A DNA stretch of 64,000 nt from an uncultured archaeon (GCA_964388035.1 CAYLZE010000014.1:1-64000), one strand, 5' to 3'; shown: positions 36,212 to 58,703, numbered from the stretch's first letter. A program made the numbers and translations. Notes: a model not told the origin generated them from the sequence alone.

Positions 36212-37993
36212 TTGGAAAATAATTTAGATTCAATAAAAAAAGATATGAGAGCTGGAAATTACGCAAAGGCTTTAAATGAATTAATTTCCTTGATTAATGG
36301 TAGTTATCCCCCTAATATAGAAGAAATATTACAGGGGATCTTGGAAATTCAAGAAATGGAATTCCCTTTAACCTCGGAATATCTTCAGAAAATTAAACCT
36401 CTTATCGATGATTTTGATGAGAATATTCACGAATTAGCGATAAAAAACTATATTAAAACCATTAAAACTACTTCTCTACTTAACGAAGAGTTAGAATTCG
36501 TACTTTCAAAATTAAAATCTTTTGAGCCGATAATTAAAGAAGAAATGATTAATTATTTAATCGAAGTTTTTCCAAATTATCCCGAACGTGAAGAGGAAAT
36601 TTTAGGGGGATTAATCGAATGCCTCGGTGATGAGATATGGAATGTACGGATGAAAATTATAAAATTTCTCAATGATATCTTCATGAAAAAAATTGATTTA
36701 ATAATCAACTTTAAAAAGCAATTAGAAATTATCTTGGAAGAGAGCGATATTGACGTCTTGAGAGAAGGGCTTGAATTTTTATTAAAATTATATGATCAAA
36801 CCTATTCCATCGCAGATATTAGAAAAATAATTAAAAATATCTCAGAAAAAAATTGGATTGCCCAAGAAAAAATCTTATTTATCATAGGGAAGTTAGGTAT
36901 CAAACGAAAGGATTTAATCACTCCCATTAGAAACGATCTAATTAAGCTTTTAGATTACAATGATTATTTAGTAACTAAAAAAGCACAACAAATAATTGAA
37001 GAAATTATTGTACACAATGCAAATCTATTCGATGAAACTTTATTTTCTTATATTCGCAACGATACTATAGATAATCTTGGGGCCATCGAAACCCTGTTGA
37101 GTAATTCTATTATAAAGCACGGATTCATGCGCTTCTATAGCATTTTTAAACAAATAGCTAATGAAAAAGACCCATTATTTAAGATTTTTAACGCAATAGT
37201 AAACAAATTATTGGATCATAACTCTGAATTAATTTTAACGATGTTTAATGATCTAATTAATAAAATATTAAAAGATTTCAATGTAAATGATTATCTCAAG
37301 TTAGAAAGATTATTAATATTAAATCCTAACTATGATCTTTATAATCTCCTCCTAAAATCATTAAATGATAAAGGTCACTTAAAGGGAATAGAAGAAGAAA
37401 AAAGAAGAATTGATTTAATGAGTTTTTTATGGGAAAATATCCCAGAATTAGGATTTAAAAGAATAAGTTCCTGGCTTAACGGCGTAATAAAACACGATTC
37501 AATCGAAATTGAGGCAATCTGTGAAAAATTCAATCTCCAACACTCTTTAATTGTTGAAGTTATTAAGAAATTAGTGAAGAAAGGGTTGTTGAATGCGCAA
37601 ATACAAGATGATGTCATTATATCGGAAAAATTCTCCCCCAAACCAAAAGAAGATGTGATCTTCTCTAATAAGTGGCAAGTAATTCAAGAAAATGAAGATG
37701 ATGAGATAAAAATCAATGTCATTCTTAATCTTAGAAATAATTCGGGAAAACAAATCACAAATATAAGCTTTGATATCATCGATCCGTATCAAATACTAGT
37801 AGTACAAGAAGTAAAAAACCATTTTCCAGAGAATTTGAATCATAATCGAGAACTTTCAATCAATTGGATTTTAAGAAAATATTATGATATAAGTAATATG
37901 CCGCTAGCAACCATGATTCAAATATTAATATTTTATCAAATCAAGGGAAAGTTATTCTATAAAAAAGAAAACATGGATATACTTTTATTATAA
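36212..37993 (+). CDS. HEAT/ARM-repeat protein with winged-helix-like segment and C-terminal beta-sandwich (appendage-like) domain
   Basis: HEAT signatures (L.DEIWNVR, LE.SD.DV, LLD.ND.LV); I.IE.IC.KFNL....I..VIK.LV.KG.L.A.I; C-terminal V.LNL.N.SG..I.NI.F beta pattern. Confidence 0.65.
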   Translation: MENNLDSIKKDMRAGNYAKALNELISLINGSYPPNIEEILQGILEIQEMEFPLTSEYLQKIKPLIDDFDENIHELAIKNYIKTIKTTSLLNEELEFVLSKLKSFEPIIKEEMINYLIEVFPNYPEREEEILGGLIECLGDEIWNVRMKIIKFLNDIFMKKIDLIINFKKQLEIILEESDIDVLREGLEFLLKLYDQTYSIADIRKIIKNISEKNWIAQEKILFIIGKLGIKRKDLITPIRNDLIKLLDYNDYLVTKKAQQIIEEIIVHNANLFDETLFSYIRNDTIDNLGAIETLLSNSIIKHGFMRFYSIFKQIANEKDPLFKIFNAIVNKLLDHNSELILTMFNDLINKILKDFNVNDYLKLERLLILNPNYDLYNLLLKSLNDKGHLKGIEEEKRRIDLMSFLWENIPELGFKRISSWLNGVIKHDSIEIEAICEKFNLQHSLIVEVIKKLVKKGLLNAQIQDDVIISEKFSPKPKEDVIFSNKWQVIQENEDDEIKINVILNLRNNSGKQITNISFDIIDPYQILVVQEVKNHFPENLNHNRELSINWILRKYYDISNMPLATMIQILIFYQIKGKLFYKKENMDILLL

Positions 37994-38010: not shown

Positions 38011-38575
38011 TTATTTAATACCTTCAAATATTAAAATCTGGTTTTCCTCGTTCTTCTTTATATCTTCTTCTCGAATTCAGTTATATGACCATTTTAATAA
38101 GATCTTTCATGATATAGGTACCATACCAAGGCATACCATAAGCTTCAGAATTATATTCACCACCTCGAGGAAGTCTGAACGCTCTTAAAAGGGAGAGTTC
38201 TTCAGCAACGTTTTTAACAAAAACATCTGAGCCATATATAGCAGCTATTTGTAAATAAAGCCGCAGCTTTTGAGTTCTAATCGAATTAATTAAATTATGA
38301 TGATAGAAATTTTTATTACGATAACAAACCGATCATGTCCTATTTGAAGTTCGCCTAAAGAATAAAATAAGGTTAAAATAACATCGGTGGTTTTGGAAAA
38401 GCCATACCCCCTTTAATACTTCTGGGTAATTAAAAGGAGTAAGAGTTAGCGCGTCTATAGCTAAGATTGCCAATTAAGGTTATAATTGCATTCTCTCCAA
38501 AACTGCTCTAGCTACCTTCTTTCTCGCTTGATAACAATCAGTTCCTGTTGCTGTTCCTACACTTGCGTCTAACAT
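38011..38575 (-). pseudogene. Collapsed relic: FIST-protein N-terminus joined to LuxC-like C-terminus
   Basis: MLDASVGTATGTDCYQARKKVARAVLERMQL*P*LAILAIDAL...FNYPEVLKG matches the 53770 N-terminus; NLINSIRTQKLRLYLQIAAIYGSDVFVKNVAEELSLL.AFRLPR.GE.N...GMPW.G.Y...DLIK matches the 56491 C-terminus. Confidence 0.9.
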
Positions 38576-38627: not shown

Positions 38628-39218
38628 TTACATGCTATTAAGAAAATTTTGTATCATTCTTTGAAGACTTCCAAGAGTCGAGGATATCTCTTCTAATAGA
38701 GATTTAACTTTTTGAACAGATACGGTGTCCGAACCTATTTCTACTTCTTCTGAAGGTTGTTCTAATTCTGTTTCTACAACAGGAGAAGGTTCTAATGCTT
38801 CTGTTTCCATTTCTATAGATGATTCTACTGATTCTGGCTCTGATTTGGTGGAAACGCTTATTGGCTTTTTACTTGTCATGGGAACCGTATCAGCAATGGT
38901 ATCCAAGTCAATTTCACCTTCAAATTGTTCCAAAATATGTTGTTTATTAAGCGTGGGGAAATTTTCGGGTTCATTTCCCTCCTCAACAACCTCTATGCTG
39001 GCACCGTAAAGCTTTAAATTTGATTTTAGTTTTGTAGCAACAACTCCACCATGATACTTATCAAGCTTATCACTTTTCCCACCACTCCAAATCCACATTT
39101 TAGGTCTTTTTTTAGTTCTATCTACGATTATATATATACCTTCCGTAGTTAAAGCTGGATTATTCGTTCCTATTAATTTCTTCCCTTCTATCTTATATAA
39201 TGTTATCATTTTTTCCAT
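38628..39218 (-). CDS. Single-domain gelsolin-like protein with acidic linker and C-terminal amphipathic helix
   Basis: YIIVD...MWIWSG..S...K...G...A....IEVVEEGNEPENF gelsolin pattern; paralog of 53211-53726. Confidence 0.8.
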   Translation of the reverse strand: MEKMITLYKIEGKKLIGTNNPALTTEGIYIIVDRTKKRPKMWIWSGGKSDKLDKYHGGVVATKLKSNLKLYGASIEVVEEGNEPENFPTLNKQHILEQFEGEIDLDTIADTVPMTSKKPISVSTKSEPESVESSIEMETEALEPSPVVETELEQPSEEVEIGSDTVSVQKVKSLLEEISSTLGSLQRMIQNFLNSM

Positions 39219-47750: not shown

Positions 47751-48056
47751 GTGGGATCATACATGATAAAGCTAAATCTGGAATTCTCTCCACCGTTTAA
47801 TGAGGTTGCGGGAAAAATATTTCAAACTTTTGAATTCGAACATCCTATTACTTTAAAAGAACTACTGGAATATCTCCGAAAAAAATTTGGCGAAGAATTT
47901 CATAAATTGGTATGGGAGAATGGAATCGAAGGAAAATTCAATAAACTCTTATCTCTCATAATTAATGGCAATTCCTATAGACACGAGGGATTCCTAGATA
48001 CCGTGTTAAATGATGGGGATGAAATTGTGTTTATCTATATTTATTTCGGGGGTTAA
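47751..48056 (+). CDS. MoaD/ThiS/SAMP ubiquitin-like protein
   Basis: Beta-grasp pattern IING...LDT.L.DGDEI and C-terminal GG. Confidence 0.88.
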   Translation: MGSYMIKLNLEFSPPFNEVAGKIFQTFEFEHPITLKELLEYLRKKFGEEFHKLVWENGIEGKFNKLLSLIINGNSYRHEGFLDTVLNDGDEIVFIYIYFGG

Positions 48057-48147
48057 AGCAACCCACCAAAATGATTTTTTCCGAAGATAATTATCATGAT
48101 CTTTTAACATTTGAGGTAAAAATTAAAATAATTAAAAAACCAAGCAA

Positions 48148-48558
48148 TTAGAATCCATCCCAAAATTTCTTGATTGGTTCTTCAAGAGCATGTTCAATCT
48201 CTTTTTCAAATCCTAAAAATTGGGTTAATTCACAATCAAAGTCATCCTTACAAGCATCCGGATAAAGTTCTAAGAATTTATCTGAAATTGCTTCAAGCTC
48301 TTCATTAACTTTCTTTTCTTTTATCGTTTTAGGATAATTGCATATAAATAATAGATTACTTTTTCTGATTATTGTGAATTTTTTATCGCTAAGTTCAAAA
48401 TTTGACAAGCCCCCCTCTGATAATTGTTCAGCAAATGAATTTAACGCACTCATCAGGGCTCCAAATAATTGATCCTCTATTTTCTTATTAAAAACCCTAC
48501 TAAATAAAACAATTCCATTACTCTTTTGAATCCAAAGATCTTGTATGAGCTTAGCCAA
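48148..48558 (-). CDS. Longin/Roadblock-like domain protein
   Basis: WI..SNGI.LFSR...DQLFGALMSALNSFA.QL..G.L..FEL...KF.I....LLFI pattern. Confidence 0.75.
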   Translation of the reverse strand: MAKLIQDLWIQKSNGIVLFSRVFNKKIEDQLFGALMSALNSFAEQLSEGGLSNFELSDKKFTIIRKSNLLFICNYPKTIKEKKVNEELEAISDKFLELYPDACKDDFDCELTQFLGFEKEIEHALEEPIKKFWDGF

Positions 48559-48635
48559 AAAAATCCCTACAATCTGCTTTTTATTTCATGTTCTCTTATG
48601 GATTAAATTTCATTTTAAAGTTAAATAATTTTCCT

Positions 48636-49394
48636 TTACTCTCCCGGCTTTTGTCCCAAAGCATTAACAGAGCGTAAAAACAATCGCTTCATCCACCCGG
48701 GCAAAATAAAACCCCCATAAAATTCTATGGCACTCAGAATTAATATGGAACGGAAAATTACGAGAGTGATTGCATCTGTTGGAATGGTTGCATCTAAAAT
48801 TGCACCTATACAAAACGTGGGAGCAGCAAGGATGAGTAATTTCCCCTTCAATTTCGTCTCAGGATCCCCGATTTTTATTGTCTCTATTCCAAATTTTATC
48901 ACCGTGACAAATAAAATTACTATCATGAAGAATAAATATATGATCAAGACCGTGAGATTTCCTGAGGTGTCGACTGGCGAAATTTTATGCCCGATATAAC
49001 TGGGGTCCGTTATCAAAAAATAGAGGAATATAACATAAAAACCTAATGAAATGAGTGTCGTAATTGCCATGATTAGCTTTCGCTTTTCTTTATATAAAAA
49101 ATTGGTAAATGCAAGTAGCCACAATATTAAGGCGAGAGGGAGTAACAAAAAATTTAGAGCCATTATCGTTCCAAATGATAACCCTTCTCCACCCGTAAAC
49201 AAAGCAACGTAAAATGAGGCGGTCGTTCCATACCAACCTGAGACAAACAAACACCACGCTAAACCAACATAGATGAAATTCCGATTTTGATTTTTAAAAT
49301 ATTTCGATACTATTATGAGCCCTAAAATAATAGATAATCCAACCAATAATGTCCCAAATATACCATTGATGAAATCTAGTGTTGATAATACCAT
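48636..49394 (-). CDS. Seven-TM membrane protein
   Basis: Seven hydrophobic segments, C-terminal Y.GF.LP.W.K; 77 bp upstream of the longin-like gene. Confidence 0.75.
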   Translation of the reverse strand: MVLSTLDFINGIFGTLLVGLSIILGLIIVSKYFKNQNRNFIYVGLAWCLFVSGWYGTTASFYVALFTGGEGLSFGTIMALNFLLLPLALILWLLAFTNFLYKEKRKLIMAITTLISLGFYVIFLYFLITDPSYIGHKISPVDTSGNLTVLIIYLFFMIVILFVTVIKFGIETIKIGDPETKLKGKLLILAAPTFCIGAILDATIPTDAITLVIFRSILILSAIEFYGGFILPGWMKRLFLRSVNALGQKPGE

Positions 49395-49593
49395 TTTATC
49401 ATCCCATTATATTGTTCTTATATAATCTTACTAATTTAAAAAAATGAAACGATAATTACAATATAAAAAGACTTTAATTTTAATTTTTCGAACTAATTAA
49501 AAATAACAGTTTTTTCAAGCCTATTTATTTTCTATTTCCTTTAATTTCCTCAATTTTAGTAAGAATTCAAAAGTGTCATGTCGTACATGCTAA

Positions 49594-51021
49594 TTATTTT
49601 TTATTTTTTAGGTTCGTGATTCTAGTCAATTTTTTCAAGGTATTAACACCTATTACCGCTTCTTCAATACTATGAAAAGCAGGTATATTGCTTAGTTCAA
49701 GAGCTTCAATGATGCTTCCATATTTTGGGATGTAGGGAATGAAACATACCAACGGCTTTCTTTCCAAAGTAACAGTGTTTGCAATCCTTCGTCCAATTTG
49801 GAACGTTATAGAGGGAGTATAAGGTAATATCAGGACAATAATGCATTCTATTCGTTCAATTCTAGATAAATATTGAATTAGTTTCTCCATATCTTCATCT
49901 TTTGCTGAGCCCGTGAGATCAATTGGGTTTCTAAAAGTGGCAATTTCTCTAGCTACGGGATTGACCAATTCGCTCATCTCATCTTGTTCTTTTTGAGTAA
50001 AGTCTATCGCAGATAAACCGTAATTTTTTAATAGATCAGCACAAATTACACCATGTCCTCCAGAAAGAGATAAAATGGCAACATTTCCATGAATAACGTT
50101 ATCGTGTTTAAATGGCTTCTTTTTGTGGGCTAATATATCTAACAACTTCAATTCAGTTAATAATTCAAGTTCCGTGAGGGGTTGCATGATTAAATATTGT
50201 TTCAACGCAGCTTCAAGCACTTTATCATTCCCCGAAAGACTTGCGGTATGAGATTGGGTTGCACTTTTTCCTTTCTCTGATAATCCACCAAAATATATAA
50301 TAACATTATCCTTCGATTCTTTTGCCAACCGTAGAAATTCTCTACTCTTAGAGGATTTAAAAGCCTCCAGGTAAAAGGCAATATTTTCTGTTTCCTTATC
50401 TCGCTTACTAAAATATTCTAAAAGCATGGTTTCATCTACCACGGCCCGATTCCCTATGGATACCGCCGTGGAGACGCCAATATGAATTTGATTAAATTTA
50501 TGAAAAAACTGGTCGACCAAGACACCTCCTGATTGACTGATTAATGCAACCGTGCCTTTGGGGGGGCGTGTTATCCGCTCGGTGGGCATAAAAATTGTAT
50601 CTAACAAGGGTGGTGAATACACTCCAATGCAATTAGGTCCAAGTACAGCAATATCATTGTCCGTTGCGATTTGAACAAGTTTTTCTTGTCTCTTTACCCC
50701 TTCACCCCCAATTTCAGCAAATCCTCCGCTAATAATGATGCATCCTGGAATATCATAATCAACACATTTTTGCACATATTCAAGCGTAGATTGAGCGGGA
50801 ATGGCTATTACCATGACATCCGGTTTTTTGGGTAAATCTTCCATGCTTGAATACAGCTCAACCCCTTCGATTTCACCCCCTTCTGGATGAATCCCATATA
50901 CCTCGACCTGCATCTCAAACACGTTCTTGATGAAAATAATTCTTCCGGGACTTAACGGGTTATGCTTGCTTATTCCCACGACCACCATGGTTTTTGGTTT
51001 AAAAAGCTTTTCTAAATCCAT
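49594..51021 (-). CDS. ADP-forming acyl-CoA synthetase alpha subunit-like (CoA-binding) protein
   Basis: LFKPK..VVG, IISGGFAE, LGPNCIG, ISQSGG, SIGN, SHTASL (phospho-His), NPIDLTG. Confidence 0.88.
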   Translation of the reverse strand: MDLEKLFKPKTMVVVGISKHNPLSPGRIIFIKNVFEMQVEVYGIHPEGGEIEGVELYSSMEDLPKKPDVMVIAIPAQSTLEYVQKCVDYDIPGCIIISGGFAEIGGEGVKRQEKLVQIATDNDIAVLGPNCIGVYSPPLLDTIFMPTERITRPPKGTVALISQSGGVLVDQFFHKFNQIHIGVSTAVSIGNRAVVDETMLLEYFSKRDKETENIAFYLEAFKSSKSREFLRLAKESKDNVIIYFGGLSEKGKSATQSHTASLSGNDKVLEAALKQYLIMQPLTELELLTELKLLDILAHKKKPFKHDNVIHGNVAILSLSGGHGVICADLLKNYGLSAIDFTQKEQDEMSELVNPVAREIATFRNPIDLTGSAKDEDMEKLIQYLSRIERIECIIVLILPYTPSITFQIGRRIANTVTLERKPLVCFIPYIPKYGSIIEALELSNIPAFHSIEEAVIGVNTLKKLTRITNLKNKK

Positions 51022-51780: not shown

Positions 51781-52161
51781 TTGAAAGAAAAAATGATTGA
51801 ATTTGCCAACTCTCAAGATGGCGTAAAGGGTCAAATACTTATCACCTATCCAGATGGAGTTCCTATTGTCAATACATGGAGAGGTGAAATTGATCCGGTA
51901 TTGGTAGGTGCTCTTTCTGCTGCGGTAAAATTAACATTTAGATATCTTTGTCGAAAATTGAGAAAAGGAGACCTTAAACGGCTATATATGAATAGCGATT
52001 ATGGAAGAGTTATCATCCAAGATGCAGGAGAGAATGCGATATTAACAACAATAATAGAAAAATATGCTGATCTTTTTGGAATTGTATTTGGGGTAAGTAA
52101 TCTTTCTCTTGAATTAGAAAACTATTTACATGGATTTGTACTACGGGTGTCAGATGTTTGA
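51781..52161 (+). CDS. Roadblock/LC7 (MglB/LAMTOR-like) protein
   Basis: GV.GQILI..DGVPI, VGALSAA, L.KGDL..LY.NS.YGRVII..AGENAILT, DLFG.VF. Confidence 0.9.
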   Translation: MKEKMIEFANSQDGVKGQILITYPDGVPIVNTWRGEIDPVLVGALSAAVKLTFRYLCRKLRKGDLKRLYMNSDYGRVIIQDAGENAILTTIIEKYADLFGIVFGVSNLSLELENYLHGFVLRVSDV

Positions 52162-53171
52162 CAGAATCAAGTTTAGAAAAATATAATTTAGTTGGATATT
52201 TGCACGAAATTGAAAAAGTAACCGATCTTAATGGATGCTATTTCATCAATGTAGAAAATGATGTCGTAATCGAATCTACAATTCCTTTTAAGGTTCCTGA
52301 TGAAATATTATGGGAAATAGGTGTACTTAGGAGTACATTCAGACAATTTTCTCAAGGGATACAGCATGGAGGACTTAATGAACTCATGATTGAAGGAGAT
52401 AAAGGATATATATTATTATACGATATACCTCCCCACTTACTTTTGCTGGCCATGGGATCTGAAGAAATAAATCTATCTTATGTAAGATTAGCCATGATCG
52501 ATATTTTAGATCGCATCAGAACCGATATCGCTGAAATTGGAGATGCTATATTAAAAATCCCAGCAAAAGATTTTGGTGTCCTTGGAGAAAAAGATGAAAG
52601 AACACCCATACTTATCACTGCAACAGAGCCTGTACAAGTTGAAAATACTGCTATTATTTCTCCTATTGTTCCAGATATCGAGCCCCCTATCAAAACTGAG
52701 ATTGAATCTATTCGTGTAGAGCAAATCAATAAAGAAATCATTCAGCCTGAGATTAAAGTACCTGACATAACTCCAGTAAAACCGCGAGAAATAGAGCAAA
52801 TAGAGCTTAAACCAATCAAAGAACAACCTATTATTGTCGAAACTCCGAATATCAAAGCTAAAATGGCCATGTTGATGGATAAAATAAATTCAATCCAAGA
52901 TAAGAATGTTAAAGAGAAATATAAGACATTAGAAAGCATTTTTGAAGAAATTAAATCTCATTTACATTCTTTTTCAGGAGTAGAATTATATGAACTATTA
53001 GAGAGTTTAAAAGATGCGATATTATTAAATATTGGTACATCTCTTGCTCTTTTTGATATCTCAAAGGTAGCGCAAGAATATAAGAAAATCGAAAGTCTAA
53101 TCGAACCGAATGAATGTGATAAGATAATCAAAAGAATTAATACTTGGAAGGTAAGGATTATCAAAAATTAA
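52158..53171 (+). CDS. Roadblock-like N-terminal domain + Pro/Glu/Ile-rich linker + helical C-terminal domain
   Basis: HGGLNELMIEGDKGYILL..I...LLL...S..INL.YV.L.M; 4-bp overlap (TTGA) with the upstream gene. Confidence 0.8.
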   Translation: MTESSLEKYNLVGYLHEIEKVTDLNGCYFINVENDVVIESTIPFKVPDEILWEIGVLRSTFRQFSQGIQHGGLNELMIEGDKGYILLYDIPPHLLLLAMGSEEINLSYVRLAMIDILDRIRTDIAEIGDAILKIPAKDFGVLGEKDERTPILITATEPVQVENTAIISPIVPDIEPPIKTEIESIRVEQINKEIIQPEIKVPDITPVKPREIEQIELKPIKEQPIIVETPNIKAKMAMLMDKINSIQDKNVKEKYKTLESIFEEIKSHLHSFSGVELYELLESLKDAILLNIGTSLALFDISKVAQEYKKIESLIEPNECDKIIKRINTWKVRIIKN

Positions 53172-53210
53172 GTAAATTATTTCCATGACACATTTAAACG
53201 GTGAAAATGC

Positions 53211-53726
53211 TTGAGTTTAAGATTTTTTAAAGTAGAACGAACAGAAATTATTCCTATGGAAGATATTGCTCTTCAAGAAGATAAACTCTATATTATCCTT
53301 GATACACACTCCAAAAGATCAACGATATGGATATGGAGCGGTCCGAAATCGGATATGATGGACAGATATTATGCTGGTGTATTCGCGACTAAAATTAAAG
53401 CACAAAAGAAACTTTATGGGGCAAGTATTGAAGTTGTTCAAGGGGGAAATGAACCAGAGGAATTTCCTAAATTAGATCAATTACAATTGGTTACTCAAAT
53501 AGATGATAAATTTGAGGAACTGGTATTTAATCAAGTTAACTCAGAAGTAGAAAAAGAAATACAAGATACAGAAGCCACAAAATCTCGAGAGCCTCCCAAT
53601 GAAACAAAAGCAATCGGGAAATCTGAAATTCAACTTAAAAATCAGATCACCTCTTTACTTAATGAATTAATTATAGATATTGGAAAGATTCAAGAGAGAA
53701 TAAAGAATTTCTCAGACAAGTTATAA
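53211..53726 (+). CDS. Single-domain gelsolin-like protein
   Basis: LYIILD...TIWIWSGPKS..M.RY.A...A....IEVVQGGNEPEEF. Confidence 0.82.
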   Translation: MSLRFFKVERTEIIPMEDIALQEDKLYIILDTHSKRSTIWIWSGPKSDMMDRYYAGVFATKIKAQKKLYGASIEVVQGGNEPEEFPKLDQLQLVTQIDDKFEELVFNQVNSEVEKEIQDTEATKSREPPNETKAIGKSEIQLKNQITSLLNELIIDIGKIQERIKNFSDKL

Positions 53727-53769
53727 ATTAAAATACAAAAAATATATAAACAAAAGGTAAAAATTAAGA

Positions 53770-55086
53770 ATGATTGATGCAGGAGTAGGACTATCTATAG
53801 AAGATAATGGATATAAAGCCGGAAACTCAGTAGCAAAACAAGCAATGGAAGGGATGTCCATAAAACCAAAATTAGCAATTTTAGTGATTGATTCGTTATC
53901 CCGGGTTAAATATAATTATCAAGATGTACTAAATGGTGTAAGGGATGTTATTGGAGAAGATGTAATACTAATAGGGAGTACTGTTAATGGGATCCTAGTT
54001 AAAGATCGTTTTGCTCTGAAAAGTGTTGGATTAATGTTAATTGGGGGAGATTTTTCAATTGATTCTTCCTTTAATTATGGTCAATCTAGATTAAAATATA
54101 AAGAGATTGCAGAACAGGTTTACAATTTATCCACGAATTTTCCCCCGAATCAAGACCGTTTTCTTTTATTGTTTCAAGATGGAATGAAATTTCCACAAGA
54201 AGTGTTAGATAAGCAAGAATCCTTGAATAGTCGTGTAGTATCACTTTTATCGGGATTAGTTAACAGGTTTTTTAAAAAGCAACTTGAAGATTTTAAAGAA
54301 GATGGTTTAGGGATGCCCTCTGTTCAAGAATTCCTTGAACAATTTTATTCTAAAGGTTGGGAAAATATAGTAATTGGAAATATAGCAACAAACGTTCGGA
54401 ATCAAGATTCTGTGGAATTTTATAATGATAAGATTGTCGATGACAATATTATTGGAGTATTTTTATCTCCTTCTAATTCTACTAAATTCGGATTCGGATT
54501 TGCAGCTGGAGCAGAATCAACTGGGAAGAAATGTATTCCAACCAAGAACATTGGCAATTTTTTACTTAAAATTGATAATGAACCAGCTTTATTAGGACTC
54601 TGTAAAGCAGCTGGTATTCAAAAAGACTCTCTATATGAATTAAAAAGCTCATTCTATCTGAATTATCATACCATTTTAGGTAGAAAAGAATCAATAGGGG
54701 ATAAAGATTATATTCATTTAACAGCCACAATAACCAATCCTAATTTAGAAAGTCTTGTGAACACCGGATTTCCATTTGAACGAGTTCCTAAAGAAATTGA
54801 AATATATAGAAGTAATATGAACATTTTAACAAAAACTGCTGTAGATTCTGTGAATCAAGCTCTTGAAGGAATCTCAACCCCAAAATTTCTATTAGGATTT
54901 GATTGCGCGATACGCTTATTTGCATATGGTGATAATCTTCCCAAAATTGTGGAAGAAATAGATAATGTTGTTGGGAAAGATCTTCCAAAAATGATTGTTG
55001 GATCGGGAGGGGAAATCTATGGATCAAAGGATATGGATAACTATTTTAATAATATGACTTTTGTATCCTTAGCTGGTGGCGAATAA
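53770..55086 (+). CDS. FIST-domain protein (stand-alone)
   Basis: GVG.S......AG..VA..A, LIGST..G, IDNEPAL, FDCA.R, GEIYG, F.N.T.V.L. Confidence 0.8.
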   Translation: MIDAGVGLSIEDNGYKAGNSVAKQAMEGMSIKPKLAILVIDSLSRVKYNYQDVLNGVRDVIGEDVILIGSTVNGILVKDRFALKSVGLMLIGGDFSIDSSFNYGQSRLKYKEIAEQVYNLSTNFPPNQDRFLLLFQDGMKFPQEVLDKQESLNSRVVSLLSGLVNRFFKKQLEDFKEDGLGMPSVQEFLEQFYSKGWENIVIGNIATNVRNQDSVEFYNDKIVDDNIIGVFLSPSNSTKFGFGFAAGAESTGKKCIPTKNIGNFLLKIDNEPALLGLCKAAGIQKDSLYELKSSFYLNYHTILGRKESIGDKDYIHLTATITNPNLESLVNTGFPFERVPKEIEIYRSNMNILTKTAVDSVNQALEGISTPKFLLGFDCAIRLFAYGDNLPKIVEEIDNVVGKDLPKMIVGSGGEIYGSKDMDNYFNNMTFVSLAGGE

Positions 55087-55201
55087 TTTAAAGCTAATTT
55101 TAATTTTTTTAATATTCTTTTTGTAATATTTTCCTAAAACATAAATTAATAAATATGGATTATATTATTTTTATAATTGCAAGAAATTTAGCTGGATTTA
55201 C

Positions 55202-56386
55202 ATGATAATTGATACATTAATTGAAAAAGGTAAAGAAAATTTCAGAAAAGAAGAACAAACGAGCGTCAAGAAAGAACGATTTGATGCTATTTATGAAACT
55301 ACGATGCATATAATGCAGAATTGTAATTCATATCGACAATTCTGTAAACAGAAGGGCTTTAATCCGAAAAATGATTTGAAGTCTATTGAAGATATTAAAA
55401 ATATTCCATACCTAACAACTGCTAATTTTAAGGCCCAATCAGGAACACCTAAACAGTTTTTATGTGTTCCAGAGGAAGAAATACAAGTTTGGACCAAGTC
55501 AAGTGGTACATCGGGTGACCCCTCTACAATCGGGAGGAATCGATTAAATCTTGAAAGATTCTTTAAAATGTTTAGTTTCGTATTAGATGAATTATTTGAT
55601 ATGCCCAAATATAATTGGAGCCTGTTTTTCCAACCACACCCAATGAATAGATTAACAATTAAGGATAAGGTGAAAGCTCCAATGAATCATATGGGATATA
55701 TCTTTAATGTTGCCAATAATCTTCCAATGGAAGCTAGAGTTTATGCCTTAAAATTAGCTAGCCCAGAAGAAATAAAGAAAGGAAAATTATTTGATTTCGA
55801 TTCAGAGGGGACATTTGGATTTTTAAATTCTAATCCCCGTCAAAAAGGTATTGGATGGCTTGGAGGATCTGTACCTTTTATGTACCAGATACTTACAGAA
55901 TACTATAAAAAAACGGGTCAAACATTTAATATTGGAGAGAAATCTGTATTAAGTACAGGAGGCGGATGGAAGACATTTTCAGGAGAAGCTGTTAACCCAG
56001 AAAAATTCCGAGAAGACATGTCGAAAATTTTAGGAATCCCAGTGAACCAAATCTTTGATGTATATAGTTTCACAGAAACTGATAATACATTCTGTGAATG
56101 TGAATATCATAATAAACATTGTTTACCATGGCAAGATGTAATTGTAAGAGATACGGAGACTTTAGAACCAGTTGGAATTGGAGAAAAAGGACTTATAAAT
56201 GTTATTAATCCTAGCGCTTATAGTTATGCTGGTATATCTATCCTACAAGATGATATAATAAGTATCACAATGGAAGATGAATGTCCTTGTGGAAGAAAAG
56301 GAAAAGTTATAGAACTTTATGGTCGGGCTGAGGGCGCGGAAGCAAGGGGTTGCGGAGCTCAAATTGTTAGGGACAGCACGATGTAG
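55202..56386 (+). CDS. luxE: LuxE-like acyl-protein synthetase
   Basis: IPYL....FK, SSGTSG, TGGGWK, DVYSFTE, H...W..V.VRD..TLEP, GISIL.DD, CPCGRKG, GRA.GAE.RGC with conserved C-terminal Cys. Confidence 0.9.
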   Translation: MIIDTLIEKGKENFRKEEQTSVKKERFDAIYETTMHIMQNCNSYRQFCKQKGFNPKNDLKSIEDIKNIPYLTTANFKAQSGTPKQFLCVPEEEIQVWTKSSGTSGDPSTIGRNRLNLERFFKMFSFVLDELFDMPKYNWSLFFQPHPMNRLTIKDKVKAPMNHMGYIFNVANNLPMEARVYALKLASPEEIKKGKLFDFDSEGTFGFLNSNPRQKGIGWLGGSVPFMYQILTEYYKKTGQTFNIGEKSVLSTGGGWKTFSGEAVNPEKFREDMSKILGIPVNQIFDVYSFTETDNTFCECEYHNKHCLPWQDVIVRDTETLEPVGIGEKGLINVINPSAYSYAGISILQDDIISITMEDECPCGRKGKVIELYGRAEGAEARGCGAQIVRDSTM

Positions 56387-56490
56387 TATTTTTTTTTATT
56401 AACTTTTTTACTTTCAATTTTTTTTTTAATCTTTCAATATTATAAATTAGATCAAGTTTAAGTAATAAATAAGAAGGAGTCCTTTTTAAA

Positions 56491-58194
56491 TTGGAGAAAA
56501 GAATAGAAATCCCCGCTTTTATATTTGAACCAAAGTTTTCTGAAAATACTGAAAATGCAGTAATTAAGCGGCAAGACGATATTTTAGAAATCACGTTCCC
56601 AATTTTTGAGAAAGAAGAGGTTCTGAAAATTGCAAATAATCTGGCGCTAAAAAAGATAAGGGCACATAATAGAGATATTGACGAAGTTTTAAATGTAATC
56701 GATGAAGTAGGGAATTTATGGGCTAATCCAAATTATGATATTCGAAAGGAAGTAATGGATATTCTTCCCATGATGACAGGGGAATCTCGTACGTTATGTG
56801 AAATAGAACTGATGGGTACCACAGAATTATGGAAAAAGAAAAATGCAGAACTACAATTAGAAAGTGAAATAGGTGGTAAAAAGCTTTTAGAAGAATGGGT
56901 ACCGAAAGGAAATTCTAGAATCCATGCTCAACCAAGAGGCTTAATTCTTCATAATATGGCGGGAAATGCTTTTAATTTGGGTTTTCTGACATTATTTTAT
57001 GGATTGGTTACAAAGAATGTTAATTTAGTTAAGCTTTCTCACGGAGAACCTTATATAACCATTAAACTTTGTGAATCTATTAGAGACGTTGATAAAAATA
57101 TAGCTAAGGAGATTGCAGCACTATATTGGCAAGGTAATCGTTCCGATATTTATGATGAATTATTTAATTCGGGTTTGATTAATGCTATAATCGCATGGGG
57201 GGGGATCTATTCTATAGAAGAAATTAAAAGACGAGCGTATCAATATGGGATAAAAATCTTGGATCATGGACCAAAACTCTCTTTTACTATTATCTCAGAA
57301 GATTTATTTCAAAATGCCGATAAATTGAGAGAAATTATACCTAAACTTGCTGTAGATATTGCATTTTGGAATCAGAGAGCATGCTTAAGCCCTAGAATTG
57401 TTTATATTGTCGATGATCCTCATGAAATTGCTATGAATTCAATTACAAGCAAGAATGATGACGGTATTGATTTAGACATAATTGAAAATAATTCTATTAA
57501 CAATTCGCTAATTAAAACATTCGATAAAAATTCAACCTCGCAAACAATTTTCGAAAATAGTTTAGAAACTCAAATGATACGATCGATAAAATTAATTAAA
57601 AATAATTTATCCAATTTATCTCCAATTGGATTTGCTCGATTATTAGCTAATAGTTTAAAAAAAGTAGATAAAATACTTCCTCGTGCTGATATAACACAAA
57701 CCGATGGTCTAGAGATGGCGAAAAAAAGACAATATTTTATGATGAAGTATGTAGCACACAATCGAGCAAAAATTTTCACGCCACCTAAAGATAAATTAGA
57801 TTGGACAGTTGTATACTTAAGAGACTTACCTACAAAACTTGAAATTGATATGTGTCAAAATCGTTTTGTAATTGTTACCAGAGTTTCTAGTATTAATAAT
57901 CTTATCTATTCAATAAGGAACGAGAAATTGCAGCAATACTTACAAACCATCTCTATATATGGCTCTGATAAATTTATCAAGGATGTGGCAGAAGATTTTT
58001 CACTATTAGGAGCATATAGATTTCCAAGAGTAGGGGAACATAACATCCATTCAATTGGGATGCCTTGGGATGGACATTATGTACTTAATGATTTAATAAA
58101 ATGGGTATATCTTGGATTTAAAGATTATAATTATGGAGAAGCAGAAGGACGAATAATTCTTTTCAAAGATGATGACTTTTTCCAACAAGAATAA
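56491..58194 (+). CDS. luxC: LuxC-like acyl-CoA/acyl-protein reductase
   Basis: PRGLILH.MAGN, GL.TKN..LVK.S, AWGG, GPKLSF, W.QRACLSPR (catalytic Cys), YLQT, PWDG...L..L.KWV. Confidence 0.9.
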   Translation: MEKRIEIPAFIFEPKFSENTENAVIKRQDDILEITFPIFEKEEVLKIANNLALKKIRAHNRDIDEVLNVIDEVGNLWANPNYDIRKEVMDILPMMTGESRTLCEIELMGTTELWKKKNAELQLESEIGGKKLLEEWVPKGNSRIHAQPRGLILHNMAGNAFNLGFLTLFYGLVTKNVNLVKLSHGEPYITIKLCESIRDVDKNIAKEIAALYWQGNRSDIYDELFNSGLINAIIAWGGIYSIEEIKRRAYQYGIKILDHGPKLSFTIISEDLFQNADKLREIIPKLAVDIAFWNQRACLSPRIVYIVDDPHEIAMNSITSKNDDGIDLDIIENNSINNSLIKTFDKNSTSQTIFENSLETQMIRSIKLIKNNLSNLSPIGFARLLANSLKKVDKILPRADITQTDGLEMAKKRQYFMMKYVAHNRAKIFTPPKDKLDWTVVYLRDLPTKLEIDMCQNRFVIVTRVSSINNLIYSIRNEKLQQYLQTISIYGSDKFIKDVAEDFSLLGAYRFPRVGEHNIHSIGMPWDGHYVLNDLIKWVYLGFKDYNYGEAEGRIILFKDDDFFQQE

Positions 58195-58225: not shown

Positions 58226-58510
58226 TTATAAGAATAAAACATCTAATTTTTTGACAATTTTTTACGATTTTTCATTTTTTTCGTAGAGGAAAATAATATT
58301 AACATTACTTATTTTCGGATTAGAAGTATTAATTTGTTTTTTCTCAAAATTATATTTCAATATAAGATTTTCACTAGGTTTTAATGTTTCTGGGAGAATG
58401 CTTTGATCATCTTTATAGATGTTAAATAATTCTGATGGACAGTCCATCTCAATTTTTAAAATTCTAATATTATTTTCAGAAATATTTTGATTTTGAATAA
58501 ATAAATTATT
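58226..58510 (-). pseudogene. Relic of the C-terminal beta-sandwich domain of a paralog of the HEAT-repeat gene 36212-37993
   Basis: NISENNIRILKIEMDCP...LPETLKPSENLILKYNFEK.....NPKISNVNIIFLYEKNEKS*KIVKKLDVLFL* vs NNSGKQITNISFDIIDP...FPENLNHNRELSINWILRK.....MPLATMIQILIFYQIKGKLFYKKENMDILLL*. Confidence 0.75.
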
Positions 58511-58703
58511 GCTAAAACTTCGGTGCAGGAAGGAACGAAGATTCTTTTCTTTAATTTATTAAAATAAAGATCTTTCCAAGAGCATCCTTTGATTGAATTT
58601 CAAGGAAAAATAGAATTTCTCTCAATTCTTTAAATTTTAATCTTAGTTCTTACTACCGATCTAAAAAATATTAGGTATTATTTCATTATTTAAATTCATT
58701 CAC

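Follow-up and report, generated by a model that had tools for sequence, protein, structure and literature searches.

A cluster of six plus-strand open reading frames was analysed at positions 51781-58194 of a 64,000-nucleotide stretch of DNA from an uncultured archaeon (GCA_964388035.1, CAYLZE010000014.1:1-64000), hereafter called the window. The genes code for two Roadblock proteins (RB1 and RB2), a gelsolin, a FIST protein and enzymes of the LuxE and LuxC families. Relatives of the window genome bear the names Promethearchaeota or Lokiarchaeota, and the DNA is present in salt-marsh metagenomes. The inheritance as a unit of an aldehyde-making enzyme pair, a probable sensor, a Roadblock pair and an actin-type regulator points to an undescribed chemical-signal pathway in Loki-type Asgard archaea. 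An earlier reading of this DNA (the original prediction) had listed six co-directional genes separated by -4, 39, 43, 115 and 104 bp, and these coordinates were confirmed; its count of six genes fell short, since the unit has a seventh gene, c2, and a collapsed second copy lies at 36.2-39.2 kb. The cluster comprises:

51781..52161, + strand: Roadblock 1 (RB1), 126 amino acids (aa), core gene; alternative ATG start at 51793; Pfam Robl_LC7 and a profile match to 9JUE.
52158..53171, + strand: Roadblock 2 (RB2), core gene; Roadblock domain at 1-135, variable acidic/Pro linker and C-terminal helical domain of about 100 aa.
53211..53726, + strand: gelsolin, accessory gene; one gelsolin domain, acidic linker and C-terminal amphipathic helix; 1DGelX-like.
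53770..55086, + strand: FIST protein of the Asgard subfamily, core gene and candidate aldehyde receptor; Cys379/Arg382/Glu415 pocket.
55202..56386, + strand: LuxE-family acyl-adenylate/acyl-protein synthetase, core gene; Lys257, Arg375 and Cys384.
56491..58194, + strand: LuxC-family acyl-thioester reductase, core gene; Cys298 and a polar insertion of about 50 aa after the catalytic loop.
58229..58555, - strand: pseudogene remnant of c2, in its usual convergent position; the C-terminal 100 codons or so, with an in-frame stop.

The cluster is inherited all or none. The LuxE orthologue was present in 19 of 161 genomes across the class Lokiarchaeia, with a patchy distribution inside genera that implies several joint gains or losses; the LuxC orthologue was found in 15 of 61 genomes, the RB2 orthologue in the same 15 and in one 68%-complete genome, and c2 in 13. 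Fisher P values overstate this co-occurrence, as related genomes are not independent. Seven other genomes (loci L031, L033, L035, L037, L040, L056 and L062) have the full order RB1-RB2-gelsolin-FIST-LuxE-LuxC with a convergent c2 behind it, and about ten loci cut by contig ends are consistent with it, with flanks that always differ; L042 and L166 show it without gelsolin. Four further orders, which bring the total to five and include strand flips, keep the core: FIST-LuxE-LuxC-RB1-RB2short in genome G060, which belongs to a different taxonomic order; LuxC-FIST-LuxE-RB1-RB2 at L172, where LuxC is seen as a C-terminal fragment; LuxC-c2-RB1-RB2-gelsolin-FIST in G047, with LuxE at the edge of another contig; and, on two contigs of G325, FIST-LuxE-LuxC, next to whose LuxC end RB1 and RB2short lie on strands opposite to each other. 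The association of luxE, luxC and FIST with Roadblock genes, on which the original prediction depended, is thus kept across genera, families, orders and rearrangements.

The core consists of RB1, RB2, FIST, LuxE and LuxC. Gelsolin, which had been counted as a full member, is linked in many loci and is an accessory, dispensable for the core, being missing also from L043, L172 and L230/L242 (G060 and G325 are likewise listed without it). The LuxC and FIST trees broadly match the RpoB tree at the family and genus level and mostly back to the class, with a few misplaced copies. Conserved linkage, all-or-none presence and trees close to that of RpoB suggest together that the core of five genes dates far back in Lokiarchaeia and has often been lost whole; gelsolin, c2 and the C-terminal tail of RB2 were probably added later, in the Promethearchaeales. 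Two variants were observed beside this pattern: a second copy in a family-f2 genome (L038, G049:C684) nests among sequences of genus g3 of family f1, by transfer or bin contamination, and at L053:2419-6552 (G018) six tandem paralogues of about 180 aa, one of them also present at L057, lie directly upstream of RB1.

Both enzymes belong to the families that had been assigned to them (Pfam LuxE, E=2e-47; LuxC, E=7e-78) and retain the named motifs, SSGTSG (100), GGGWK (253) and Cys384 in LuxE and QRAC (295-298) in LuxC. When mapped on the catalytic residues named for the LuxC-LuxE complex solved by cryo-electron microscopy (PMC9157457, PDB 7XC6), LuxE S100-G105, K257, R375 and C384 aligned to chain 7XC6_E (Lys238/Arg355 and Cys364) and LuxC C298 to Cys296 of 7XC6_A. 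The catalytic residues are unchanged in 20/20 LuxE and 34/34 LuxC orthologue rows (C298 in 34/34), these rows including a few duplicates of one gene. The NCBIfam equivalog scores were 137 bits for LuxC with a cut-off of 750 bits and 124 bits for LuxE with a cut-off of 550 bits, and the LuxC cleft residues W111, S166, F297, F436 and H442 of 7XC6 correspond to G, L, L, H/Q and W. Scores so far below the cut-offs, together with the altered cleft, imply that the substrate could be an acid other than myristate or another long-chain fatty acid; of the "fatty-acyl reductase" first proposed, the families stand and the fatty-acyl specificity is putative.

The reported lack of linked luxA, luxB and luxD was borne out, as no luciferase was found in any examined Loki locus (the two luciferase-fold genes of the genome are F420-dependent LLM/Mer types on other contigs) and no LuxD family match (PF02273) in the window genome, which is 96.7% complete. 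Compared with the bacterial lux LuxC-LuxE(-LuxD) system, the Asgard unit has the same two families, the same Lys/Arg/Cys in LuxE and Cys in LuxC and usually adjacent luxE and luxC genes, but it has no luxA, luxB, luxD or luxG, carries the insertion in LuxC, scores below the cut-offs and has signalling genes as neighbours.

Both proteins of the Roadblock pair contain the expected domain, RB2 being larger than first described by its linker and helical domain. RB1, whose orthologues are 31-75% identical, matched Robl_LC7 with E=1.5e-5 and 9JUE with E=3e-19; for RB2 the Pfam match was weak (E=0.08), with profile matches to the solved Roadblock/LC7 chains 7F8M, 9JUE and 7YH1 at E values of 4e-8 to 5e-5. 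A Roadblock profile match to the conservon protein CvnB5 (3LEQ) was also obtained. The pair was modelled as a dimer, its likeness to the textbook Roadblock dimer being judged without a score. The RB2 tail is missing in families f6 and f7 and gave no useful match in the ESM Atlas. A helical domain of this type also ends a widespread Loki family of coiled-coil proteins of 500-900 aa with no Pfam name (L131-L144; G000 C4, C16 and C42), some with a TrmB-like N-terminus and often convergent with a CDP-alcohol phosphatidyltransferase.

The FIST protein (Pfam FIST, E=1e-13, plus FIST_C) has the FIST_N and FIST_C domains, the three-repeat fold and the C-x-x-R and G-E motifs, as well as an insertion of about 60 aa typical of an Asgard subfamily, with a basic amphipathic helix at 153-175. 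Its model superposed on the FIST domain of human FBXO22 with Z=17.7 and a root-mean-square deviation of 3.4 over 282 aligned residues, the next folds being barbiturase (Z=10.8) and chorismatase (Z=10.6). A ten-row profile matched nothing in the PDB; with a 103-row profile, C379 aligned to FBXO22 C326 and E415 to E362. In FBXO22, aldehydes are bound at Cys326 as a hemithioacetal, for which E362 is needed (bioRxiv 10.1101/2025.08.29.673087). The Cys, Arg and Glu residues are conserved in 90, 93 and 97 of the 103 rows, and since the Cys/Glu dyad is general to FIST proteins it speaks for a capacity to bind aldehydes, not for a function. The window protein thus shares the fold with FBXO22 and bacterial NosP, and the dyad that binds aldehydes in FBXO22, but has no F-box, kinase or c-di-GMP (cyclic diguanylate) domain; it has the Asgard-specific amphipathic insertion, and its predicted partner is a Roadblock heterodimer. 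Linkage of the NosP type, to a kinase or a c-di-GMP enzyme, was found in none of the examined loci.

When FIST, RB1 and the Roadblock domain of RB2 were modelled together, the complex scored 0.88 compared with 0.01 for the best control. The runs agreed on at least 83% of the contacts, with a predicted local distance difference test (pLDDT) value of at least 89 for the partners. The score mark is reached by 58 of 80 solved pairs and 2 of 110 mismatched pairs, counts that hold roughly as our own alignments were used. Searches of the PDB found no solved FIST-Roadblock complex, so there was none to copy from. The largest share of the predicted interface falls to RB2 104-115, facing FIST 80-85 and 383-392, with a contact to RB1, and the second FIST stretch is next to C379-x-x-R382. 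The model supports a predicted binding of FIST to the RB1-RB2 Roadblock pair.

From these data we propose, at about even chances of being right, a self-contained small-molecule signalling module in which an aldehyde is made, read by FIST and relayed via the Roadblock dimer. Judging from family knowledge and the intact catalytic residues, LuxE would adenylate a carboxylic acid and hold it on Cys384, and LuxC would accept the acyl group on Cys298 and reduce it with NAD(P)H to the aldehyde. FIST might then sense this aldehyde, or its ratio to the acid, by forming a reversible thiohemiacetal at Cys379 with the help of Glu415. In the model FIST would sit on the RB1-RB2 heterodimer via the surface beside the Cys pocket, a position that leads us to suggest that ligand occupancy alters the availability of the Roadblock dimer. 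The weakest step is the last, in which the target of the dimer may be a small GTPase from another part of the genome, by analogy with the related cassettes described below, while the later-added gelsolin and c2, a HEAT-appendage scaffold, would be co-regulated outputs for actin or membrane remodelling. If the module works in this way, it would resemble synthase-receptor quorum sensing of the LuxI/LuxR type in that the signal-making enzyme is co-inherited with the receptor, but there is no homology, the output would be a GTPase regulator rather than a transcription factor, and export of the product is only putative. Among the branches of the original prediction, that of an aldehyde signal read by FIST gains support from the FIST-Roadblock model, the FBXO22-type dyad and the convergent reductase types of other Asgard lineages.

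FIST proteins of the same subfamily, with the same insertion, occur in KaiC-Roadblock-FIST(-Ras GTPase) cassettes of other Asgard families, in which the Roadblock protein is homologous to RB2 and RB1. In G083 and GCA_016840025.1 such a cassette divergently adjoins an EhpF-like ligase (PDB 3HGU, E=9e-41) and a protein of the aldehyde dehydrogenase (ALDH) fold with a catalytic Cys, relatives of which come after an AMP-binding gene in a Pantoea phenazine cluster. These EhpF/GriD-type enzymes are only 15-18% identical to LuxE/LuxC and non-orthologous, and the ligase has no C-terminal Cys carrier. EhpF/EhpG chemistry, the kinship of EhpF with GriC, and GriC/GriD as the same kind of pair are presumed here: adenylation and then reduction of an acid to the aldehyde would be common to these pairs and to LuxE/LuxC, for which this type stands in beside the KaiC cassette, although the window enzymes are not orthologous and those pairs are known only from antibiotic or pigment biosynthesis. 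For GriC/GriD, reduction of an aryl acid to its aldehyde is described (PMC10179220).

Family f10 (Heimdallarchaeaceae, judging from names) has the FIST cassette in 25 of 28 genomes and each EhpF/GriD-type enzyme in 22 of 31, unlinked or loosely linked; these enzymes were not found in 134 f1 or 14 f2 genomes. In family f27 (probably Hodarchaeales) FIST is present in 22/22 genomes and a separate LuxE-like/LuxC pair of its own in 18/22. The background of LuxC elsewhere is low and not zero (3 matches over the final 89 genomes tallied; f17, 0/19; f19, 1/12). With the Loki loci and the KaiC cassettes counted in, an acid-to-aldehyde pair accompanies this FIST in four lineages. The pairs belong to two or more unrelated types, and in two of the lineages the linkage is physical.

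Several observations weigh against an aldehyde signal. The Cys/Arg/Glu set is general to FIST proteins, including those with no reductase neighbour, and the known aldehyde ligands of FBXO22 are synthetic. In f10 and f27 the reductase genes lie away from FIST, and either family amounts to roughly a single event; 4 of the 22 f27 genomes have FIST with no LuxC match. LuxC-family genes are also present in f8, f25, f31 and f12 genomes where a FIST of this type could not be detected, and G059 has an EhpF/GriD set but no FIST with it. Finally, no small GTPase, and no linked KaiC either, was found in any examined Loki locus. The tie to GTPases and the cytoskeleton first suggested is thereby narrowed to the Roadblock linkage, with gelsolin accessory and a GTPase only in the related KaiC cassettes. 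In the window genome it was not possible to pick out an orthologue of the KaiC, the GTPase or the Zn-finger protein of the sister cassette, Ras-like matches numbering 49 at 31-39% identity.

The strongest competitor, which we hold to be a serious though rather unlikely one, is a regulated metabolic enzyme: LuxE/LuxC would supply the synthesis of lipids or surface polymers with an aldehyde or an alcohol, and FIST-Roadblock would sense something else (haem, nitric oxide, an acid) and control or scaffold the enzymes at the membrane. The gene linkage and the predicted complex fit it equally well, FIST always directly precedes LuxE in the Loki loci, and non-luminescent LuxE/LuxC are usually found in biosynthetic islands, such as the pair in the flagellin glycosylation island of Aeromonas (PMC7874193) and clusters with an acyl carrier protein (ACP) and radical-SAM genes (L045-L049). 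However, the unit has no conserved gene for an alcohol dehydrogenase, an ACP or a transferase, and the swap of two unrelated reductase types is better explained by a need for the product class than by a physical fit between enzyme and regulator.

It is improbable that FIST is itself a pathway enzyme, a LuxD-like acyl donor or an aldehyde-converting one, in a unit that makes a metabolite under Roadblock regulation. The conserved Cys/Arg/Glu could be catalytic, barbiturase and chorismatase are the nearest folds after FBXO22, and the genome is without LuxD; yet the same FIST subfamily stands in the f10 and f27 KaiC-Roadblock-GTPase cassettes with no adjacent enzymes, and the FIST proteins characterised so far are known as sensors or as receptors for substrates. 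Hitch-hiking of unrelated genes on one mobile or co-lost island is more improbable still and largely refuted. It would be in keeping with the patchy presence, the differing flanks and some hints of transfer (the window copy groups with genus g8 against the RpoB tree), but the core persists through the five gene orders, the gene trees mostly track the species tree to class level, the window retained one intact copy per gene after duplication (two of gelsolin), and there are the predicted FIST-Roadblock complex and the second reductase type beside a sister cassette. Least probable is the branch of the original prediction in which acyl-LuxE would acylate a Roadblock protein, gelsolin or FIST and so anchor it to the membrane. 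In its favour, LuxE forms an acyl thioester, and conserved cysteines are present at RB1 Cys57 (16/18), RB2 Cys27 (7/9) and FIST Cys379. On the other side, LuxC, by which the acyl is taken off as aldehyde, is never missing from the inherited set, the EhpF-type ligase that stands in for LuxE has no Cys carrier at its end, the partners have no N-terminal Gly or CaaX, gelsolin has no conserved Cys and G060 is without both Roadblock Cys. The acyl-activation/reduction module tied to regulators therefore stands in part, with its linkage and without acylation as an anchor.

The accessory genes were compared with known families. The gelsolin (Pfam, E=5e-4; profile match to Thor 2DGel3, E=2e-12) has the layout of the Asgard 1DGelX gelsolins (PMC7444086), one domain and a C-terminal extension with a predicted helix, with a much shorter tail; the likeness rests on this layout, as no 1DGelX structure exists for comparison, and its actin role is putative. 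The c2 model (pLDDT 85) consists of a HEAT solenoid, a winged helix and a beta-sandwich appendage. It gave template modelling scores of about 0.2-0.3 to INTS4, INTS7 and COPI and no whole-chain match, and so would only loosely resemble Integrator and coatomer subunits; a HEAT trunk and an appendage are the parts expected of adaptin and coatomer large subunits, to which c2 would be at most a putative relative, and the winged helix is additional. At L170:5405-11305, c2 is expanded to two paralogues of 930-990 aa after LuxC.

Every part of the unit belongs to a known family, and its proposed working as a whole comes closest to that of a sensor-Roadblock cassette into which an enzyme for making the signal has been built. 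The Loki unit is neither a lux operon nor a member of the MglAB or conservon systems. With MglA/MglB, Ragulator LAMTOR2/3 and the Streptomyces conservon (CvnA-D) it has in common a long-form Roadblock pair downstream of a sensor, and the sister KaiC cassettes include a Ras-like GTPase; it differs in having no GTPase, histidine kinase or DUF742, and in its FIST sensor and signal-making enzyme pair. The original prediction knew of no description of this combination, and our literature search (combinations of Asgard, LuxE/LuxC, FIST, Roadblock, KaiC and GTPase) found none, either of the Loki cluster or of the KaiC-Roadblock-FIST cassette. A wider and more doubtful proposal is that of a general Asgard aldehyde signalling, in which a dedicated carboxylate reductase, taken on two or more times from enzyme types that are not related, would make a messenger that binds covalently and reversibly at the FIST Cys and so switches a Roadblock heterodimer, with actin and membrane remodelling via gelsolin and the HEAT-appendage scaffold added in the Promethearchaeales. 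Such an aldehyde messenger would be categorically new, and in that case the reaction of Cys326 in human FBXO22 with aldehydes would go back to an ancestral FIST function. For FIST domains, few of which have a known natural ligand, the unit offers a candidate ligand class with the enzymes that would make it. It also provides a gene-linked partner for Asgard Roadblock proteins, for which the matching of regulator and GTPase is hard because such operons are rare (Tran et al., PMC10933270), and a possible way, open to testing, in which a chemical cue could reach the actin skeleton of archaea. All of the proteins look soluble and suited to expression in E. coli. Asgard archaea are the closest microbial relatives of complex cells.

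The second, divergent copy lies 13 kb from the first. Its c2 and gelsolin are intact, and FIST and LuxC are only remnants after a deletion:

36212..37993, + strand: intact c2, 593 aa; HEAT solenoid 1-410, winged helix/PCI-like 411-471, beta-sandwich appendage 480-593.
38045..38299, - strand: C-terminal remnant of LuxC, 53-59% identity, with stops.
38405..38575, - strand: N-terminal remnant of FIST, 44% identity, with stops; the internal deletion leaves 105 bp to the LuxC remnant.
38628..39218, - strand: intact second gelsolin-X gene, 196 aa, 35% identity to the first gelsolin.

The losses are reciprocal, the first copy keeping only a remnant of c2. The first copy groups with genera g8 and g5, unlike in the RpoB tree, and the second does not; this grouping with different relatives suggests two origins and, tentatively, a direction of donation.

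Other genes of the same enzyme families were met in these genomes. Another Loki type of LuxE/LuxC occurs at L047-L049 in clusters with ACP, AMP-ligase and alcohol-dehydrogenase-like genes, akin to the set of the Aeromonas island. At L046 (G000:C49:16700-25200), two more LuxE-like genes stand among B12-type radical-SAM-like genes, without LuxC and with five tandem zinc-ribbon proteins nearby. A LuxE-LuxC pair 42-48% related to the Loki pair is found at L165 (GCA_054386315.1, labelled Heimdallarchaeota), on a 7.6-kb contig with no FIST or Roadblock. In family f8, whose genomes are small, a LuxC-like gene is present in 4/4, and neither LuxE nor FIST was detected beside it (L307, G061:C1:79400-80900), and L276 (G059:C117:6000-22000) is a biosynthetic-looking cluster of two EhpF-like, two GriD-like and radical-SAM-like genes, without FIST.

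A sigma-70 promoter scan of the window was at chance (44 compared with 39.7 ± 6.4), sigma-70 being the wrong promoter type. The divergent acyl-CoA ligase gene (49594-51021) and the flanking maf and NTPase genes were ruled out as members of the unit, as this neighbourhood is not conserved. The stretch 47751-51021, divergent from the cluster and not conserved beside it, codes for a ubiquitin-like MoaD/SAMP protein, a longin, a multi-pass membrane protein and the alpha subunit of an ADP-forming acyl-CoA ligase.

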